64,000 nt of DNA from contig OY970061.1 of the NCBI GenBank assembly GCA_963705255.1, positions 1,824,001 through 1,888,000 of the forward strand. The letters run 5' to 3'. Positions 5,557-63,320 of the stretch are shown one piece after another; the stretch's first letter is position 1, and each line of letters opens with the position of its first letter. Made by a program: the position numbers and the translations under genes. Source of the DNA: an uncultured Methanoregulaceae archaeon (GTDB lineage: Archaea > Halobacteriota > Methanomicrobia > Methanomicrobiales > Methanospirillaceae). The notes under the pieces were generated by a model. It had not been told where the DNA came from, did no database searches, and worked only from the letters and a program-made list of their open reading frames with translations.

Positions 5557-6238
5557 CGGCATATTTTTCCGGCCGGTTCAGGAACGCGAGTGCATCCCCG
5601 TTCCCGATAAGGTTGTACAGCGGCCCCCTGATGATGCGGCGGGCCCCGTGTCCTGAATTGGGCCTGAGGTGCCGGACCGGCGGCAGGTCCGGATACTGAG
5701 GGTTTTTCTCCATGTCGCCGGAACACAATTCGAAATATGCCGCACCGTGACGTTCCTCGTATTCCCGGTAATCACTCTCGAATGCGGTTGAGACGATATT
5801 GGCCATCACCAGGGTCTCGTCAGGCGTGGGATTTATCGACACGTGCCCGTAACCGGGAGGGATGATAACAAGGTCTCCTGCGCATGCCGCGATCAGCACG
5901 ATATCGTCAAGGGTGCGTGACTGGAGGAGGTAATGCGCCTGGCCTTCAAGCACTTCATAGATCTCGGGATATCCCACGCCGGCCATATTATCAGGGTGAT
6001 AATGGCCTTTGGTCTTGACCCATTCGCCACAGAGATCCCGGGGGGGAATGACCGTGAGATCATACCGGAGGTGGCGGGAATGGAGCCACCGCCAGTCGGC
6101 ATCCGATCTCGCAAGATCGCGGTACATAAAATAGAGAGGATCTTCGGATGTACAGAGGGGATTGGCAAGGACAGGGCGCATGTCCCCGATTGTCCGGACT
6201 GCAGGGGCTGGAAGATCCCCGTCCCATCCAAGCATCAC
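5528..6238 (-). CDS. Cupin-type (archaeal) glucose-6-phosphate isomerase family protein
   Basis: KTKGHYH, YPEIYEVLEG and IPPGYGHVSIN cupin metal-binding motifs. Confidence 0.85.
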   Translation of the reverse strand: MMLGWDGDLPAPAVRTIGDMRPVLANPLCTSEDPLYFMYRDLARSDADWRWLHSRHLRYDLTVIPPRDLCGEWVKTKGHYHPDNMAGVGYPEIYEVLEGQAHYLLQSRTLDDIVLIAACAGDLVIIPPGYGHVSINPTPDETLVMANIVSTAFESDYREYEERHGAAYFELCSGDMEKNPQYPDLPPVRHLRPNSGHGARRIIRGPLYNLIGNGDALAFLNRPEKYAAIFEVLLKG

Positions 6239-7563
6239 TTCTTCTTTCGCGTTCCAAGTACATAATACCCGGCGCCGGCCATGAGCAGGACGATGATTAC
6301 AACCACCGGCAGCAGCACGACACTGCTGAATGCCGGTTTCTGGACTACCTGTACCGGTACCTTGAACGTGTCGGAGACCAGGTTGTTATCCAGGGAATCC
6401 TGGTAACTGACTACGGTATCGAGCGCGTAATTATTGACTGCCGCATCAGAACCTGTGCTGATATCGTAGCGTGCGGTTGCCATATCACCGGGTTTCAGGT
6501 CGCCGAGGTATGCGGTGTTGTCAGTACTTGAGAACGGATCGACCGCTGATAACCTCGATTCTGCATGGTAAGCAGTAACCGTACCGGTATTCTGGTACTG
6601 GACGGTGATAACACTGTCCGAACCCTGGGTCACCCTTGGCGTTGCGGAGGTGATGGAAAACGTGATCTTGGCCTGGACCGGGACTCCAATCGTCTGGGCT
6701 TCCGAGGTTACCGTATCTCCATAGCTGTTCTCGTAGGTCACGGCGACATCAACCGGATAGGTCTGATTTTGTGCATCGCTGGAAGCGGCGACCTCATACC
6801 TGCAAAAAACCGGTTGATTCCGCGGGAAGTCCCCGATAAAAATGCTGCTGTCGATCGGTATAACCGGGCTGTTCCCGTTCTGCAGTACCTTTACTATCGC
6901 CTCCCTCCCGTCATCTGACCCCATGTTGACCAGGGTGAGGTCCAGGTATCCGGTGGTACCGACACTCAGGTTCTCTGCCACAGATTTGGTTACCTTGATC
7001 AGTACCGTCGGGGTGATTTTTATGGTGATCGGGAACGTAACATTTTCCCTGACATATATGGAATTGAGGGTATCTGCTGCAGGCTGGGTCGAGGCGGCGA
7101 GATACGTGTAGCCGACCGTGAGCGGGAGCTGGTATTCACCGATCGTTGCATCCTGGGTTATTTTTACAATAATATTTACCGGGACCTGGCCCTGGGTGGG
7201 GATATCTCCGATGTTCTGAGGATCGCTCTTTACAACAACAGGGGCATTACCCGCTGAAAGTCCGACCGTAACCATTTTTGCCGTGGTGGGGACATCGTCG
7301 CGTGGGATGGGACCGGCAGAGTCGCAAATAGTTTGCGTGGATCCCATGGTGCAGGTATAATCCACGGATTCAATGGTACTGATACCGCTGTTCTTCACGA
7401 TCACGCTTATCGTGGCATCCTGCCCCGGCGAAAATTCGTTGACACCTGATAGTACAGCGGACATATAGGGGCTCGCGCCAGAATATGTCGTCACACCCAT
7501 GACCGGAAGCGTGCACAACAGTGACAGGAGCAGGAAAAGGAAGATCTCTTTGCGATATCTCAT
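6235..7563 (-). CDS. COG1361 S-layer-domain / cell-surface protein
   Basis: Signal peptide, repeated beta-rich Ig-like domains (YLGDLKPG, IGDFP), and a C-terminal TM helix with a basic tail (RKKK). Confidence 0.8.
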   Translation of the reverse strand: MRYRKEIFLFLLLSLLCTLPVMGVTTYSGASPYMSAVLSGVNEFSPGQDATISVIVKNSGISTIESVDYTCTMGSTQTICDSAGPIPRDDVPTTAKMVTVGLSAGNAPVVVKSDPQNIGDIPTQGQVPVNIIVKITQDATIGEYQLPLTVGYTYLAASTQPAADTLNSIYVRENVTFPITIKITPTVLIKVTKSVAENLSVGTTGYLDLTLVNMGSDDGREAIVKVLQNGNSPVIPIDSSIFIGDFPRNQPVFCRYEVAASSDAQNQTYPVDVAVTYENSYGDTVTSEAQTIGVPVQAKITFSITSATPRVTQGSDSVITVQYQNTGTVTAYHAESRLSAVDPFSSTDNTAYLGDLKPGDMATARYDISTGSDAAVNNYALDTVVSYQDSLDNNLVSDTFKVPVQVVQKPAFSSVVLLPVVVIIVLLMAGAGYYVLGTRKKK

Positions 7564-56035: not shown

Positions 56036-56560
56036 GTGCAGAGCGTCGTCCCGGGTCCGTGTCCGTCCTGCAATACTGAAATCGAATACCTGTATAAGAC
56101 AGAAAATATCCCCTATTTTTCCGATATCCTCATTATTTCTGCGGTCTGCCCCTCCTGCGGGTACAGGTTCGTTGACACGCAGCTCTTAAAGCACGGAGAT
56201 CCTGCACGGTACACGATGCCGGTGGAATCAGAAGACGACCTTGCGGTCCGGGTCGTGCGGAGCATGAGCGCCAGCATCGAGATCCCCGAGATTGGAGTAC
56301 GCATCGATCCCGGCCCGGTCTGCCAGGGGTTCATCTCCAACGTTGAAGGCGTGCTCGACCGGATCGAGCAGGTGGTGAAGGGTGCACTCAACTGGGGCAC
56401 GGACGTAGAGAAGGAGAACGCGGCGGCACTCCTCACGGATATCGCCCGGGTGAAGAGCGGTGCTTACCCGGTTACGCTGATCCTTGAAGACCCGTGCGGG
56501 AACAGTGCGATTGTATCGGAGAAGGCGAAGAAGGAAGCGTACGTGCCGGAAGAAGAGTAA
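56036..56560 (+). CDS. ZPR1 zinc-finger protein
   Basis: CPSC..IPYF..CPSCGYR, IEIPEIG..PG..SNVEG and LEDPCGNS. Confidence 0.92.
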   Translation: MQSVVPGPCPSCNTEIEYLYKTENIPYFSDILIISAVCPSCGYRFVDTQLLKHGDPARYTMPVESEDDLAVRVVRSMSASIEIPEIGVRIDPGPVCQGFISNVEGVLDRIEQVVKGALNWGTDVEKENAAALLTDIARVKSGAYPVTLILEDPCGNSAIVSEKAKKEAYVPEEE

Positions 56561-56674
56561 ATTTTCTGATTTTTGATTCACCAGAAATCCGAGACCCCCC
56601 TCTTGTGCCTCCGAATGGTTCATCAGGACTATGAGGATGAGAAGAACTCTTCAGAGTTCTTCGAAACCAGAACT

Positions 56675-56780
56675 TCCCCCATTGGGGGGGACGGGGCAAA
56701 TTGGGATAGCCCCATACAGGTAATACGGAGGCATCGCAACTCGGGGATGCCCACGCGGTGGGGGCGGAGCCCCCAAGAGC
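56675..56780. other. Cluster of GC hairpins (REP-like or structured element)
   Basis: CCCCC-ATT-GGGGG, GGCATC...GATGCC and GGGGGC-GGA-GCCCCC inverted repeats within about 100 bp. Confidence 0.45.
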
Positions 56781-57100
56781 GTCAGACCTCTGATTAATTT
56801 TTCACCAAAGTTTGATCGATCCGGATTTTTTTCTCGGTCGCTGCAATCCGGAAAAAATCGATCGCGTCTCAGAAATTCTTAAAAATTTTATAAAGAATCT
56901 TTTCAGCCACCCCCAGCACATCCGGAAAACCAGATCCGCCCGTTTCATTGATCGAACCCAAGTCATCATAATATTATAAATGTCATTGAATCGTACCATA
57001 ACGATAAAAATCCGGCCCGATGGAAAAGATCACGCGGGCCACTCAACACACAGGAGAACCGAGCAATGAATAACGACCCAAACCTAGGAGCGATCCTCCC

Positions 57101-57586
57101 GTGAATCGCGGCCGCCGGGCAACCAAGGGCCTCGATGACGCCGCCCCCATCGCCCAGCGACGCGGCTGCCTGATGAAGGTCGAGTACGGTCCGGAGAGCG
57201 TCTGCGATTTTTTGATCCGGACCGTCGAGCTCGTGATCTTCGTCCGGGTCGTGCGCATCGAGAAGATCGTTGCCTCGGTGAGCGAGATCGGGCACGAGTG
57301 CCGGGCTATCATCGCCGAGCTCCGGCTCTTCCCGCAGTCGCCGCAGATCCGGCTCGAGCTCTGGGCGTACAACAAACACGGGACGTACCGCTACTTCCGG
57401 CTCACCGCGACCGGCCTGGAGGAGATCCGGCAGAGCGGGGAGCCGGAGACCGTGGCCACGGGCGAAGGGGCGGACCAGCAGAAGGCCGGGGAAGCGGGAG
57501 GTACTTCGGGTGAGGGGCTGTCGCTGAAGTTCTCACGCTGGGGATGTTTCTCCGGTTTCGATGATGACGTATCGCATCCCGGATAG
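57101..57586 (+). CDS. Hypothetical protein, possibly a degenerate restriction-endonuclease-like fold
   Basis: AGGAG SD before the GTG start; host-like codon usage; CDFLI..IFVRVVR and RLELW...YRYF strands; low-complexity C-terminal tail. Confidence 0.65.
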   Translation: MNRGRRATKGLDDAAPIAQRRGCLMKVEYGPESVCDFLIRTVELVIFVRVVRIEKIVASVSEIGHECRAIIAELRLFPQSPQIRLELWAYNKHGTYRYFRLTATGLEEIRQSGEPETVATGEGADQQKAGEAGGTSGEGLSLKFSRWGCFSGFDDDVSHPG

Positions 57587-57723
57587 GGAAACCCGTCCAG
57601 ACGGTATTCTGCCTGGCAGAGGGGATTCAAAGTCAGTATTTACACCCTATTTGGAGGGGGTATCCCACCCTACCCTGTACAGGCGGTTCTCCGTCGTAGA
57701 AATCTGCCCCCGGAAAGGGCGAT

Positions 57724-57776
57724 GGGACTAAGTACCCCAAAACGGGGGACTAATTCGGGAAAATGGGGGACTAATT
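57724..57776 (+). repeat. Three phased direct repeats GGGACTAA(TT)
   Basis: Copies start at 57724, 57746 and 57767 (spacing 22 and 21 bp). Confidence 0.7.
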
Positions 57777-57952
57777 ATTTCGAAGTCTTATGATTGGACC
57801 CGGATCGGTCGATCCGGGCCCGCAGCGGACCCTGATAAAAACCTTACTAGACGCAATACACTGGCAAAACTCAGGCTCAGACAGGCTGGGGTAGGCCCGG
57901 ATCGGAAAAAAGGGGGTCCGGATCGGGTCTCCGGACGGGGGGATCACCCCCC

Positions 57953-58230
57953 TTGCGCCAGCCGGCGCCTTGTCGGCGCCTTGTCGGCGCCTTCCTGACC
58001 TGGCTTGTTCCCTTCCTTGCCTCCATCCTGTTCTATGGCAGGGACGGTATGATGATCGATCTCCAGCTCTTCAAATCGCTGATGATCGGTGTCGGATCGA
58101 TCACTACCGCAATCCTGATCGTCTGGCTCCTTCCAGCCGGTTGAGAAAAATTTCACGCACGAGGCCATCGTGACCGGGATCGTCTGGGCTTCGATATCTC
58201 GTGATCCCCGCGATGGTGAGCGCAACCTGG
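57953..58230 (+). pseudogene. Fragment of a small membrane protein gene
   Basis: Hydrophobic AFLTWLVPFLASILFY..FKSLMIGVGS. The 5' end is lost at an 11-bp tandem repeat (CGGCGCCTTGT), and the frame breaks at 58144. The end coordinate is approximate. Confidence 0.5.
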
Positions 58231-58263
58231 GTTGTGATGGAAGAGGTGGGAAAAAGAAAATAT

Positions 58264-58280
58264 TGAAAATTTTTATAAGT
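58264..58280 (+). promoter_or_regulatory. Putative archaeal BRE/TATA promoter of the island operon
   Basis: GAAAA followed by TTTTTATAAG upstream of the first island ORF. Confidence 0.45.
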
Positions 58281-58408
58281 AGTTTGTAATTAACGATTTT
58301 TTTAATTCTAGAAGAATTGGATATCGAACGCGATGACAGCGAAATTATTAACGTGTCTGAGATTTTTAAAACATATTATAATACTCGATCTGATAATGGT
58401 GAGCCTTC

Positions 58409-59257
58409 TTGAGTACTGTTGAATGTGGAGATGTAATCTGCAATTTCACAAATCCATTGAAAATTCATGAAGGAGGTCAACGAATTGTTTATCGAATCGA
58501 CCATCCGAAATATGGATTCGCCGTTTTAAAAGTTGGATATTATGCAACACCTTCGAGTCCGATGGGATGGGAATTAGAAAGGATTGAAAGGGAGGTAGAA
58601 ATTTTACGGGAAATTGATTCACCCTTTTATCCGAAAAATTATGATTTTCAAGTAATTTCAAAAAATCGATATATGATTCTTGAAGAATTTCTTGATTCGC
58701 CAACACTCACATATCAAATGGACAGATTCAATTCTCCAATCGCAGCTTTAAAACTTATAAAAGAGTTAGCAACCGGATTAAAAATTATTTGGGATAAAAA
58801 AATTGTTCACCGCGATCTCAAACCGGAAAATATTTTGATTAACGATAATAATTCCCCGAGAATTATTGATCTAGGGATAGCTCGAGTACTTGATTCAGAC
58901 TCAATCACTAAAACAAGATATGGTGGACCCTTATCCCGTGAATATGCACTCCAGAACAACATCGATATAATAAAGCGTTGATAAATTGGAGGACAGACCA
59001 GTATAATCTAGGAATCATTTTGATGCAATTACTATTGAAGGGTGTTCATCCCTTCTCTCCCTCATTAGTTGGTGGGAACTCCATTCGAGATAATATTTTG
59101 AATAATAACTGGTACCGAATTGCTCTAACTGACATAAGTCTTTTTACCCATACAACCATTCGCGACAAATTTGTTGGGTTATGAACAGTTTGAGCGCTAT
59201 AGAACATTTGAATTTTTCATGAACGATCTTGATTCATGTCTGAAGGTGATGAAATGA
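58409..59257 (+). CDS. Hanks-type Ser/Thr protein kinase; frameshifts near 58949 and 59141
   Basis: EGGQRIVY, AVLK, ERIEREVEIL, HRDLKPENILI and IIDLGIA. After a frame change: PEQHRY..RTDQYNLGI..HPF. After a second change: LLGYEQFERY..LKVMK*, whose TGA (59255-57) overlaps the next ATG. Confidence 0.88.
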
Positions 59258-60444
59258 CGTTTGAAATTTATCATCAACTGGGGCATAGAGACAAATGGAG
59301 TATTGATAGTTATCAGAACGATGGAACTGGAGAAGGAGTGATAATCTCCCCTCGTAGCAGAAAAAAAAGAAATGTGGAGTCTTTAAGCTCTACAGTGAAA
59401 AAGAAAGCAATTTTTGATCCTCAGTTTTTCAATCCGAATGCTGTAATAAAAAAGATGGATTCATATGATTTTTATCCCGATTTAATGATGCCAGGTGGAT
59501 TTGATACAATTCGTTTTTCAAATTATTGTTCGAATGTTGCTGAAAATTGTGTTTCTTTTCAAATTAAGAATAACTTCAGGTACATAGTGATTCCGACGAG
59601 GTTCTATGAGGGGGCACCGGATGCCGAATTTTTCACACGGAATCAAGAAAATGATTTTGTTATTCCTTTTTTAAATGCGAAAGACGCCATTAAGTCAAAA
59701 AAAGATGCGATTCTTCAGTTAGTTCTTACTGGACATATGTTGAGAAATAAAGTCTTTATCGATTATTTGCTTACATGGATAACGGGTCTCGAAGGGATCA
59801 AAGGGATTTATCTTATTACAGAACTATTACCAAGGAATTCTCAAATTACTGATGCCGAATTTTTATTGAATTTGATGAATTTCATCCACATACTCCATAA
59901 AAACAAAATGATTATTGTTTTGGGGTACCTGAATAGTGAATCGTTAATATTGTCGATTGCAAATCCATCGATCGTAACAATTGGTTCTTTCGGAAATTTA
60001 CGAATCTTTAATTCAAAGATGTTCGAAGAAACAGAGGCAGGAGAGATTAAAGTTCCGAGTTATAAGATCTATTCACCCGTACTTCTAGATTGGATTGATG
60101 CCCCATACGTAGATCTTATGAGAGACAGAGCCATAGTTCCTAACGAGTTCTTTGGGAATAATACATATCTGGAGACAATGTTCAGCGACGGGTACAATGG
60201 TAGTGCTCAAAGCAATGAACCATACAAACATTATTTCATTGAAATTTCGAAACAATTACAAGATATTCGATCATCAAATGGTGCGGATAGATATTCAAAA
60301 GTAAGTGAAATGTTACGAAATGCCAAAGATGAGTATTCCCGAATTAATGACACAGGAATTGATATCGGAAGACAAGGTGCCTTCGTTTCTCAATTTGCAA
60401 CAGCAGCAAATTTATTCGCACGTGATCAAGGTTGGAGAAAGTAA
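59254..60444 (+). CDS. Hypothetical protein (~396 aa), island gene 2
   Basis: Uninterrupted ORF with GAAGGTGAT SD and an ATGA overlap with the kinase; motifs YHQLGH, GVIISP and IFDPQFFNP; alternating alpha/beta pattern. Confidence 0.85.
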   Translation: MTFEIYHQLGHRDKWSIDSYQNDGTGEGVIISPRSRKKRNVESLSSTVKKKAIFDPQFFNPNAVIKKMDSYDFYPDLMMPGGFDTIRFSNYCSNVAENCVSFQIKNNFRYIVIPTRFYEGAPDAEFFTRNQENDFVIPFLNAKDAIKSKKDAILQLVLTGHMLRNKVFIDYLLTWITGLEGIKGIYLITELLPRNSQITDAEFLLNLMNFIHILHKNKMIIVLGYLNSESLILSIANPSIVTIGSFGNLRIFNSKMFEETEAGEIKVPSYKIYSPVLLDWIDAPYVDLMRDRAIVPNEFFGNNTYLETMFSDGYNGSAQSNEPYKHYFIEISKQLQDIRSSNGADRYSKVSEMLRNAKDEYSRINDTGIDIGRQGAFVSQFATAANLFARDQGWRK

Positions 60445-60446
60445 GA

Positions 60447-60878
60447 ATGGTATTTAAGACTGAATCCGATTTGGTTGAGGCAATAAAAAGGAATCAACAG
60501 ATTCATGATTTTATGATTTCAGGGGATTTTTTGATGCAAGAAGAAGTATCAGGATTTTTTGGCGTTCCTGATGTCGTTTTTATTAAGCAAAATCACGAGA
60601 GAAAGATCTCATATGCATACGAGGCAAAACTATCCAATTGGCCTAGGGCATTGACACAAGCATTCCGATACAAAGCATTCGTTAATAAATCGTTTGTAAT
60701 TCTGGATCACGACCATATTGAACCAGCGTTGTCAAACGCCGATAAATTTTGTAAGGCGAATGTTGGGTTGATGAGCATAGATTGTTCGGGAATCCTTCAT
60801 TGTCATTATAACCCCTATTATGAGACGCCATATTCTCAACGGTTGGAATATAAGTTCAATGAAAAATATCGATTGTAA
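60447..60878 (+). CDS. Small PD-(D/E)xK nuclease-like protein (143 aa), island gene 3
   Basis: QEEV..GVPDVV...AYEAKLSNWPRALTQAFRY gives E, PD, ExK and QxxxY motifs; starts 2 bp after the gene 2 stop, with GGAG upstream. Confidence 0.8.
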   Translation: MVFKTESDLVEAIKRNQQIHDFMISGDFLMQEEVSGFFGVPDVVFIKQNHERKISYAYEAKLSNWPRALTQAFRYKAFVNKSFVILDHDHIEPALSNADKFCKANVGLMSIDCSGILHCHYNPYYETPYSQRLEYKFNEKYRL

Positions 60879-60935
60879 TTTTTGTAGTTATTGTCTTTTT
60901 CGATTTGATGAAAATTAGAAAGAGATTAAAGCCCT

Positions 60936-61927
60936 TCACGTTATCTCCATCTCCCCGAGCCACGCCCCTGCTTCCCGTATGACTTTCCCGACGACCTGTG
61001 CCCCCTTCACCATCTTCCGGATGCAGGCAACGCTCTCTTTGGGGACGACATATGCGTATCCCATGCCCATATTAAAGGTGCGGTACATCTCGACCAGCGA
61101 AATATCGCCGGCCTTCTGGATCCACGAGAAGATTTCCGGAGGGGTTATGGGCGTGTCGAACCGGAAGCCGTAATCGCTCAGCCGCCTGAAGTTGAGCAGC
61201 CCTCCTCCGGTGACATGACACATTCCGTGGACCGCACAGGCTGCCGTTACCTTCAGGGTCTCGTGGTAAATCCGGGTCGGGACGAGCAGTTCCTGCCCGA
61301 GTGTCCGCCCGTCCCCCAGCTGCTCAGCGTATCCCGCGTACTTCTCCACGACATTCCGGGCAAGGGAGAGCCCGTTGCTGTGGACACCCGTTGACCGGAT
61401 CCCGACAATGGTATCGCCGGGCCGGATCTTTCACCGGTTATGATCCGGTCCTTCTTCTGCATGCCAAGACAGGTACCGGCAAGGTCGAGGCCGTTGACCA
61501 GTCCGCGCAGCGACGCGGTCTCCCCGCCCACGATGTCGATGTTCGCCTGCCGTGCGCCCTCGTTCAGGCCGATTCCGATCTGGGACATCTTCTCTATCGA
61601 GAGCTTATCGGTAGCAATGTAATCGACGAACGCGACTGGTTCCACGTTCATGACATAGAGGTCGTTCACGTTCATCGCGATGCAGTCGATACCAACCGTA
61701 CTCCAGTCTTCCATCCGGTCCGCAACGAGCATCTTCGTCCCCACCCCGTCGGTGGTCAGGGCAAGCGCCATCTCGCCGAAATCGATCAGCCCGGCAAAAT
61801 GGCCGACCGATCCCATCATCGTGGTGCTGCCTTTCCGCCTGAACTTCAGGTTCCCGATGAGGGCTTTGATTGCCGTTGCTTCGAGATCGATGTCCACGCC
61901 GGCTTCCGCATACGCGTTCTTACTCAT
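60936..61927 (-). CDS. purM: Phosphoribosylformylglycinamidine cyclo-ligase (AIR synthetase); frameshift near 61430
   Basis: YAEAGVDI, TDGVGTK, DCIAMNVND and GGETA, then LLVPTRIY, HVTGGG and EMYRTFNMG in the next frame; one A missing in GGTGAAAGATC. Confidence 0.92.
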
Positions 61928-63320
61928 CGCTCTCCTCCGAGAGCCGGAACTCATCATGGAGAACACGGACCGCACGCGGACCGTCGTTCTGGCTCACCAC
62001 GAACGAGATGTTTGCTTCCGAGGAGCCCTGCGAGATCATCATCACGTTGATGCTGGCTGCCCCCATTGCGGTAAAGATCCTCCCGCCGGTCCCCGGCGCC
62101 CCTGCCATTCCTGCCCCGACGACCGCAACCGCGCAGACATCGTGGTTATGGGAGACTTCGCGTACAATGCCCTGTTTCATGAGATCCGACAGGGCCTTTA
62201 CCGCGGCGGACACATGAGACTCGTCCACGATCAGCGATATATTTGCCTCGCTTGAACCCTGCGAGATCATCATCACGTTCACGTCGTGATCGGCAAGGAT
62301 GGTAAAGATCGCCTTTGCCACACCGGGCCTCCCGATCATCTGTGCGCCGTTGATATTGATGGCCGCGACCTTGTCGATATACGTGAGGGCTTTTACCACG
62401 CGGTTGTCCCGCTGCCCGTTCCGGACGATGACCGTACCGGGATGGGAAGGGTTGAAGGTGTTCTTCACCCGGACGAGGATGTTCTTGCGCATGGCGGGCT
62501 CGATGGAGCGGGGGTGCATTACCTTTGCCCCGAAATAGGAGAGTTCCATGACCTCGAGGTAGGAGAGCGAGGGCATCACCCGGGCATCATTGATGACCCG
62601 GGGGTCGCAGGTCATGATCCCGTCGACATCGGTCCAGATCCAGATCTCGTCCGCATCGATCCCGGCACCGATGATGGAGGCGGAGTAGTCCGAGCCGCTC
62701 CGCCCGAGGGTGGTAAGGACCCCCTCCCGCGTGCAGCCCATGAACCCCATGATGACCGGTATCTCTTTTGCGAGCAACGGGCCGACCCGCCGTTTGATCC
62801 GTTCATCGCTCTCGGGAAGGGATGTCGACTCACCGTGCTGGGGGGTGGTGAGGATACCGGCCTCGCAACCGTCCATAACTGTGGATGCAATGCCCCGCCG
62901 GCGGATGGCCGCAGATAGGATCGGGGCAAGCAGCCTTTCACCAAACGAGATGATATAATCCTTCGAGCGGGGAGTGAGTTCCCGCAGGTTATAGACCGCG
63001 AAGAGGATGTTCTGGAGGCTGATGAGCTGCTCTTCGATCTCGGCACCGACCTGTGCAACGGAGTCCGGCGCAGCCCCTTCAAGGGTGGTCATGTGCCGCC
63101 GGGAAAGGGCCTGGATCAGGGGGGCGATGCCGGAGTCGTCCTTTGCTGTCGGAAGCTTGCCGGCGATCTCGATGAGCTGGTCGGTGACACCCCGCTGTGC
63201 CGAGACGACAACGGCAAGTTCGTCGCCTTTCCCGTGGTGCTCTTCGAGGATGTCGACAACGCGTTTGATACACTGGGCATCGGCAACGGATGTCCCGCCG
63301 AATTTCATCAGAAATCTCAT
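61920..63320 (-). CDS. lysC: Aspartate kinase with ACT domains
   Basis: MKFGGTSV, VVVSA, TLGRSGSDYSA, IWTDVDG and two MISQGSSE ACT repeats. Confidence 0.95.
   Translation of the reverse strand: MRFLMKFGGTSVADAQCIKRVVDILEEHHGKGDELAVVVSAQRGVTDQLIEIAGKLPTAKDDSGIAPLIQALSRRHMTTLEGAAPDSVAQVGAEIEEQLISLQNILFAVYNLRELTPRSKDYIISFGERLLAPILSAAIRRRGIASTVMDGCEAGILTTPQHGESTSLPESDERIKRRVGPLLAKEIPVIMGFMGCTREGVLTTLGRSGSDYSASIIGAGIDADEIWIWTDVDGIMTCDPRVINDARVMPSLSYLEVMELSYFGAKVMHPRSIEPAMRKNILVRVKNTFNPSHPGTVIVRNGQRDNRVVKALTYIDKVAAININGAQMIGRPGVAKAIFTILADHDVNVMMISQGSSEANISLIVDESHVSAAVKALSDLMKQGIVREVSHNHDVCAVAVVGAGMAGAPGTGGRIFTAMGAASINVMMISQGSSEANISFVVSQNDGPRAVRVLHDEFRLSEESDE

Follow-up and report, generated by a model that had tools for sequence, protein, structure and literature searches.

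Three coupled genes in a low-GC island of an uncultured Methanoregulaceae archaeon probably form a conflict or defence module whose three proteins act together. The window analysed here is a stretch of 64,000 nucleotides (nt) of contig OY970061.1 (assembly GCA_963705255.1, positions 1,824,001 to 1,888,000, forward strand). Its island encodes a Hanks-type Ser/Thr kinase (K), a protein that is, by its predicted fold, a zinc-less relative of the tRNA-guanine transglycosylase (TGT) barrel (gene 2, T), and a predicted PD-(D/E)xK nuclease (gene 3, N). The three genes are one unit that travels jointly through archaea and bacteria. We favour the reading that the cassette is a mobile three-component conflict module, most likely one acting against viruses or by abortive infection, and we regard this reading as evenly poised between right and wrong. 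An earlier note on this DNA, which had seen in the island a candidate new defence or toxin-antitoxin system, is largely borne out. Three points are new: gene 2 is assigned to the TGT fold, though without the zinc motif; the genes come in four arrangements, one of them fused and another accompanied by a PP2C phosphatase; and the layout parallels gop-beta-cII of phage P4.

Organization of the island

The island stands out sharply from the chromosome, as the earlier note had described. In 400-nt sub-windows, the GC content is 0.335–0.398 across 58200–60999 (35% overall) and 0.58–0.64 in the flanks at 57000–58199 and 61000–62000, and in nearly all of the related loci listed the flanks are likewise richer in GC than the cassette. 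The features are as follows (L011, L015 and further L numbers are related loci).

58230–60930, no strand: low-GC island with the cassette, set off by its GC contrast to the flanks
58372–58383, plus strand: candidate archaeal promoter, a TATA-like box in a near-leaderless arrangement, from an alignment of the upstream regions of the window, L011 and L015
58409–59257, plus strand: Hanks-type Ser/Thr kinase gene (K), TTG start, TGA at 59255–59257, with two compensating frame breaks
59254–60444, plus strand: gene 2 (T), predicted TGT-fold TIM-barrel protein with a C-terminal helical part, 396 amino acids (aa), ATG to TAA
60447–60878, plus strand: gene 3 (N), PD-(D/E)xK protein of predicted restriction-endonuclease fold, 143 aa, ATG to TAA
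60936–61990, minus strand: AIR-synthase-like gene, flanking and outside the cassette at its right border, split by a frame break near 61425

The tight coupling of three co-oriented genes, also part of the earlier description, is seen in the ATGA overlap shared by the kinase TGA and the gene 2 ATG (59254), and in the gap of 2 nt between the gene 2 stop and the gene 3 start. The open reading frames (ORFs) of the island include no mobility gene, again as described before. The TATA-like box precedes the kinase TTG by 26–35 nt and is kept in the window, L011 and L015; the AT-run at 58260–58290 is a different element.

Linkage of the three genes and their four arrangements

Relatives of gene 2 were collected at 72 loci, 13 from species genomes, 58 from metagenomes and 1 from viral contigs, of which 10 duplicate another. 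The kinase gene lies directly upstream of T at all 69 loci with at least 300 nt of upstream sequence, and N lies directly downstream at all 55 loci that have a complete T and at least 300 nt of downstream sequence (44 on the same strand, 11 on the opposite one). All three genes are also present at five more archaeal loci, three of them ordered N-K-T. The triad is strictly conserved across bacteria and archaea, a point that the earlier note had proposed to check, and it takes four forms.

Type A, the common form, keeps all three genes on the same strand in the order K-T-N and is seen at 44 loci as well as in the window. In type B, which accounts for 11 loci, 10 of them distinct (L012, L013, L059, L060, L062–L068), K and T are joined by an N gene on the opposite strand; the T and N genes converge and overlap by 17–44 nt in all 10, and N bears an inserted winged-helix domain. 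A PP2C phosphatase gene adjoins N in eight of these distinct loci, and the other two hold an ORF of the same size at that position, with no match at 1e-7. Type C has the order N-K-T on one strand in three archaeal genomes of the same phylum (L098, L099, L100); there the profile match covers only the C-terminal two thirds of gene 3. Type D, at L110, carries a 689-aa fusion of a kinase (Pkinase, 1e-48) with a T-like domain (A3 profile, 1.3e-23), and is laid out as follows.

L110 798–2867, plus strand: kinase–T fusion (Pkinase and T-like domain)
L110 2868–3521, plus strand: N homologue with an insert (2.6e-21)
L110 3692–4615, plus strand: PDDEXK_4 protein, another PD-(D/E)xK protein
L110 4765–6837, plus strand: HsdM methylase

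The Desulfobacteraceae metagenome-assembled genome (MAG) that holds L110 also has a standard cassette, L005. A further standard cassette, L055, has a GC content of 23% and a PP2C gene after gene 3.

The close spacing seen in the window recurs elsewhere: a 4-nt overlap of the K stop with the start of T is shared by 36 of 60 loci, and the T–N gaps range from −17 to +27 nt (35 loci). In addition, the pairwise-identity matrices of the three proteins co-diverge over 45 distinct loci, with r of 0.935 for K–T, 0.798 for K–N and 0.752 for T–N, and none of 999 permutations reaches any of these values.

Gene 2 is predicted to be a TGT-like barrel

Gene 2 had been described as a protein of about 396 aa of unknown kind. 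That description holds for the sequence libraries, but a fold can now be assigned. The predicted structure is a TGT-type TIM barrel with a C-terminal extension, according to VIA-align, the sole search that gives the TGT link; the comparison with Cap10 of CBASS yields 13.4, level with glycoside hydrolases (~13). Foldseek against the Protein Data Bank (PDB) returns generic TIM barrels only (TM <0.4), and against BFVD nothing at E≤0.001. No significant match to gene 2 is found in Pfam (none at E≤1), PADLOC, NCBIfam or PHROGs, its profile matches no PDB sequence under E 0.1, and in the Atlas it falls into unnamed clusters only.

The T family is uniform in length, at about 395 aa. A word-indexed search recovers 66 clusters, and an exhaustive profile search finds 936 representatives (from clustering at 50%) at E≤1e-3, 603 at 1e-10 and 133 at 1e-30. 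Near-invariant polar residues, including D55-P56-Q57, sit at the ends of the barrel strands, which suggests a working pocket. TGTs are characterized by a catalytic Asp pair and base exchange; D55 is the sole near-invariant acidic residue of T. The T-like part of the L110 fusion, a distant homologue, keeps CxCxxC together with a His further downstream, which match the TGT zinc site in relative position, and these residues tie the T family to true TGTs more firmly than the fold alone does.

The genome of the window has two genes found by PF01702, and gene 2 is not among them. One is the archaeosine TGT, at 655812–656780, and the other a second, shorter PF01702 homologue (G000:C1:2436491–2437444, 349-aa frame, E 7.9e-39); the same pair is present in some relatives.

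Gene 3 is a predicted PD-(D/E)xK nuclease

The assignment of gene 3 to the PD-(D/E)xK superfamily, made earlier from its sequence, agrees with both motif and predicted fold. Among 21 sequences, E6, D42, E59, K61, Q71 and Y75 are invariant (E...D...ExK...Q..Y), and the protein is predicted to adopt a restriction-endonuclease-like fold with D...(D/E)xK on the core sheet. The N protein of the common arrangement has 143 aa, with no DNA-recognition domain and no terminal helical extensions. Nothing significant is found for it in Pfam, PADLOC, NCBIfam or PHROGs (marginally, phrog_22231 at 4e-4), and its profile gives nothing under E 0.1 against PDB sequences.

Three weak leads agree that N may be remotely related to the cII/sce7726 proteins. 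NF033832 matches the type B homologue of L013 at E 0.0069, below the cut-off; the nearest named Atlas cluster is PF26915 Phage_P4_cII (0.87); and hhalign gives E 0.0011–0.0021 at a probability of 13–20% and lines up the D, ExK, Q..Y and VG motifs. Against P4 cII alone, hhalign of N (A2) gives a probability of 0.4%.

The kinase and its frame breaks

The first gene encodes a Hanks-type Ser/Thr kinase, as had been proposed: its in-frame 190 aa match Pkinase (PF00069) at 2.3e-19 (70.3 bits, cut-off 31.7). In the present assembly a stop at 58979–58981 closes the ORF ahead of the APE motif. The kinase is read in frame 2 to ~58949, in frame 1 to ~59145 and then in frame 2 to the TGA, with breaks near 58949/58950 and at 59142–59147, and the intact 282-aa kinase of L011 aligns to the window as three tblastn pieces in frames 2, 1 and 2. 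The β3 Lys, the αC Glu, the HRD motif, the D(L/F)G motif, the activation-loop Thr and an APE-like motif are kept in 12 of 12 intact relatives. Of these, the copy in the window has Lys, Glu, HRD and DLG in-frame, and its APE motif and C-lobe lie past the first break. At another locus, L039, the kinase (1–379) is read in two frames, resembling that of the window.

Frame splits are frequent in this genome. When 200 kb of a complete same-genus genome were compared with it (ORFs of at least 200 aa, at least 70% identity and at least 80% coverage), 7 of 52 orthologues proved to be split here; the control in the opposite direction gave none of 38. The AIR-synthase-like neighbour aligns as two tblastn pieces, in frames −1 and −3, to single ORFs of L011, G394 and G354. 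Since many genes are split in this assembly, that neighbour included, the breaks in the kinase are probably of the same kind, namely assembly errors. The assembly, a single 2.60-Mb contig with a marker completeness of 89.5%, seems to contain many short indels, with consequences for other findings on this genome. Two breaks within 200 nt are still unusual. Four metagenome runs of one study contain pieces identical to the island, and no contig among them bridges either break; no RNA dataset is listed among the sequencing runs that hold island pieces.

The 190-aa fragment matches the PADLOC models for PD-T4-6 (PDLC04047, 4.5e-23) and mad6 (1.9e-21), and full-length relatives do so at 1e-33 to 1e-44 and 1e-30 to 1e-45, respectively. 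The mad6 and MkoA kinase models score like PD-T4-6; these look like generic kinase-domain matches, with unrelated systems fitting equally well.

Hosts and genomic context

Named hosts of the cassette include Methanoregula, Methanocellaceae, Methanofollis, Bacillota, Desulfobacteraceae, Smithella, Herpetosiphon, other Chloroflexota, Bacteroides, Parabacteroides and the candidate division TA06. Within the phylum of the window, 6 of 401 genomes give a real match to T, and none of the 11 other same-genus genomes does; in one related MAG, L011, the cassette occupies the site that it has in the window. With its patchy distribution and foreign GC content, the cassette looks horizontally acquired and mobile.

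Its neighbours were scanned with Pfam at the 13 genome loci (114 ORFs) and at 37 metagenome loci (150 of 188 ORFs, those below 115 aa and one more being left out). Restriction-modification (R-M) or mobility genes stand near the cassette in 7 of the 13 genome loci. R-M-type genes account for four (L001, L005, L006 and L008): at L008 HsdM/HsdS and HsdR enclose the cassette and AbiEi comes next, at L005 the neighbours are an HSDR_N protein and DUF4007, and at L001 and L006 they include DNA methylases. Mobility genes also account for four (L001, L002, L007 and L009). Among the metagenome loci, R-M genes are near three (HsdS directly upstream at L053, type III R-M upstream at L062, and an Eco57I/MmeI-like gene at L055), and integrases, recombinases or insertion sequence (IS) genes are near eight. 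At L009 and L051 the cassette sits at a prophage end with an integrase adjoining, and transposases or recombinases are nearby at L001, L002, L007, L026, L029, L056, L058 and L064. Defence or mobile surroundings, for which the earlier note had proposed a test, are seen in these raw counts as R-M operons, prophage ends and IS-rich spots.

A possible switch centred on T

We infer a defence role for the cassette, a direction of signalling and a type of ligand, with T as the putative hub: its gene stands between those for K and N, one lineage has it joined to K in a single protein, and a complex with N is weakly predicted. In this chain, the conserved barrel pocket of T would bind, or exchange, a ligand that carries a nucleobase and signals infection, for which modified viral DNA, tRNA or a nucleotide are candidates, and would so gate K. 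Active K would autophosphorylate on the invariant activation-loop Thr and would phosphorylate T, N or host targets. N, freed or activated, would then cut DNA, and the infection or the cell would be stopped. In type B, the PP2C phosphatase would reset the switch. If the island is a conflict or defence module, this specific K-T-N signalling chain is possible, with the chances leaning against it.

The earlier note had suggested modelling the complex, and the T–N pair gives a pass of the weak kind. The prediction scores 0.53, against 0.10 for the best of three controls, at least 76% of the contacts agree between runs, and the partner pLDDT is at least 89. Of the solved complexes, 116 of 157 reach the mark for such scores, as do 2 of 215 mismatches.

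Several observations weigh against the signalling chain and the defence role. At complex scores of 0.60 or below, the mark is reached by only 18 of the 157 solved complexes and by both of the mismatches. Linked genes of shared descent are expected to correlate, so that the co-divergence speaks for joint inheritance and not for binding. Gene 2 has no PF01702 match, and hhalign against 17 archaeal TGTs gives a probability of 0.3%. The TGT zinc motif CxCxxC is present in none of 159 full-length T members, the window protein included, and T may therefore not handle bases at all. The consensus YENxR position, a Glu in most members, is a Gly in the clade of the window, so that the T of the window may be catalytically dead. 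At L058, T is cut after ~65 residues (6001–6213) and followed by an IS integrase (rve, 6384–7445), and K looks whole, a poor fit to a T that is indispensable for restraining K. Finally, the neighbourhood counts have no background to be set against, and many loci lie amid housekeeping genes (L003, L004, L010, L023, L024, L038 and L040).

The boldest form of the idea, an immune switch common to archaea and bacteria in which a zinc-less transglycosylase descendant reads or exchanges a nucleobase of viral nucleic acid or of a nucleotide signal, acts through the Ser/Thr kinase physically joined to it and so unleashes a bound nuclease, we consider unlikely. Were it true, it would be the first link of transglycosylase-type base recognition to protein phosphorylation in prokaryotic immunity. 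If the cassette is a defence system at all, it is an undescribed module spread across methanogens, haloarchaea-like genomes, Bacteroidota, Chloroflexota, Bacillota and Desulfobacterota; to our knowledge, few archaeal defences other than CRISPR and R-M have been characterized. A large, unannotated family would gain a fold and a context, and the emerging theme of TGT-fold proteins recurrent in immunity (DpdA, Cap10, P4 beta) would be extended. The cassette would also offer a compact model of three proteins, or two in the fused lineage, for the wiring of a kinase to a nuclease.

Known systems and alternative explanations

No system-level match is found in PADLOC, Pfam, NCBIfam or PHROGs, as the earlier note had expected of PADLOC, and no PADLOC model matches T or N. 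Nor did we find a literature description of a system made of a kinase, a TGT-like protein and a nuclease. The earlier view that no named system fits holds in this sense, but the layout has a precedent in gop-beta-cII of phage P4 and the 'TIM-B' systems; PADLOC has the models 'beta' and 'cll'.

In phage P4 (L074), gop and beta are followed by a convergent cII. According to the available text of a preprint of October 2026 (bioRxiv 10.64898/2026.10.19.760177), P4 beta (PF14350, 'TIM-B') is unified with the deazaguanine-transglycosylase barrel, and TIM-B comes after a variable effector, the effectors of its operons being Gop, a cyclase, HigB, a restriction endonuclease (REase), Pol-beta, GNAT, sirtuin, RES, a caspase and 2TM proteins; in some operons an REase gene, P4 cII, is convergent and overlaps. 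Gop-beta-cII appears in a list of defence systems in the accessible part of PMC9122126. Like these operons, the cassette has an effector gene directly upstream of the gene for a TGT-like barrel, has downstream an REase-fold gene, which in one subtype (here type B) converges on the barrel gene and overlaps it, and is carried on mobile DNA. Unlike in gop-beta-cII, the N of the common arrangement is co-directional and short, without terminal helical extensions, and the cassette occurs in archaea, with PF14350 present in 0 of 401 genomes of the phylum of the window. Its effector slot holds a Hanks kinase, and none is named in the effector list of the preprint, as far as its available text goes.

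The main rival explanation, which we find somewhat improbable in itself and almost as likely as the K-T-N chain above, follows the toxin-antitoxin-like logic proposed for this P4 system. K would be a toxic effector and T its constitutive negative regulator, acting via a small-molecule product or a covalent mark, with N as a second effector or a regulator at the transcript level; infection would lift the repression, and the kinase would shut the cell down. The shared layout argues for it, as do the three weak leads from N to cII and a locus, L123, at which Beta_protein and sce7726 genes converge and overlap. Kinases are toxins or effectors in Stk2 and HipA, and the PP2C partner of the sister type suits a kinase that needs restraint. 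Kinases have the same role in the kinase-kinase-phosphatase system (KKP), according to the part of PMC11341870 available. The broken kinase beside an intact T and N in the window would suit the loss of a toxic part, if the breaks are real. Several points count on the other side. K looks whole beside the truncated T of L058, no kinase is among the TIM-B effectors named, and the model that TIM-B holds its effector in check (bioRxiv 10.64898/2026.10.19.760177, available text) is itself a hypothesis. Moreover, T is a separate sequence family and, by sequence, not a Beta_protein: it matches neither PF14350, in a search that took in the whole genome, nor the PADLOC 'beta' model; hhalign (A3) gives a probability of 1.0% (E 0.053) against 34 Beta proteins and 0.1% against P4 beta alone; and the Beta hidden Markov model matches no T gene in any triad locus. 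As a separate observation, P4 beta (L074, 651–1718) matches the PD-Lambda-2_C models of PADLOC at 8.1e-14 and 1.7e-8, and the three-gene system PD-Lambda-2 appears, from these sequence matches, to contain a barrel of the TIM-B type.

A non-defence explanation is quite unlikely. The cassette would then be an accessory regulatory or RNA/DNA-maintenance module, for example for kinase-controlled tRNA or DNA base handling, that hitch-hikes on mobile DNA. The housekeeping surroundings of about half of the loci would suit it, as would the failure of known defence models to match T or N. It is at odds with the patchy distribution (6 of 401 genomes of the phylum, none of the 11 others of the genus) and foreign GC content, with the nesting in type I R-M operons (L008, L053) and at prophage or integrase ends (L009, L051), and with a nuclease whose catalytic motif is intact, which together with this context are hallmarks of conflict systems.

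Two further explanations draw on known TGT-fold systems, and both are less likely because the partner genes are missing. DpdA is the DNA preQ0 insertase of the Dpd systems, and in an R-M-like scheme of that kind T would swap a base in host DNA as a mark of self, N would cut unmarked DNA, and K would lend ATP-dependent help or regulation. We think this very improbable: no DpdB, DpdC or preQ0-synthesis genes (QueC/D/E) are found among the 264 neighbour ORFs scanned, T lacks the zinc motif, the N of the common arrangement has no DNA-recognition domain, and a Hanks kinase with full substrate-phosphorylation motifs would be an odd ATPase helper. Fainter still is the prospect that T resembles Cap10, which conjugates a deazaguanine base to the CD-NTase, and would modify a protein, marking K or N to prime or silence it. 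CBASS type IV, in which the TGT-like Cap10 goes with a QueC-like Cap9 (PDB 9ntn, as far as the available description goes), has defining partners that are lacking near the cassette in the neighbour scans. In contrast to the bacterial and archaeosine TGTs, QTRT2 and DpdA, T has no sequence-level similarity to any of them and no zinc motif, and has a kinase and a nuclease as its partners.

Returning to the favoured conflict module, its kinase recalls kinase-based defence (PD-T4-6, the MADS kinase MAD6, Stk2 and KKP), in which a Hanks-type kinase likewise stands in a defence-like locus. PD-T4-6 and Stk2 are single-gene kinases, whereas K, in loci collected by T, always comes with T (69/69) and N (55/55). 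The TerY-P and kinase-kinase-phosphatase layouts do not fit, as had been noted before: no second kinase, no TerY/vWA protein and no methyltransferase set is seen, and the likeness to KKP and TerY-P is confined to the PP2C phosphatase of the sister arrangement. The island of the window has no PP2C, second kinase or TerY/vWA gene, PP2C being found only in type B and L055. The lack of a phosphatase on which the earlier note had relied is true of the arrangement in the window, but not of its sister.

Borders of the island

Same-genus synteny stops at the AIR-synthase-like gene, and just three flanking genes are locally comparable; the L011 orthologue of that gene carries AIRS and AIRS_C domains. 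A sigma-70 promoter scan does not rise above shuffled sequence (6 found, 9.8 expected), and neither does a terminator scan. The flanks of the island show no att-like or convincing repeats, and an Rfam search of 56500–61200 gives 0 matches. To the left, 56600–58230 has no clearly coding ORF and no Rfam match. The GC-rich left flank contains direct repeats at 57739–57926: a 17-nt unit is present twice (at 57739 and 57760) and a GC-rich 12-nt unit four times (57797–57926).

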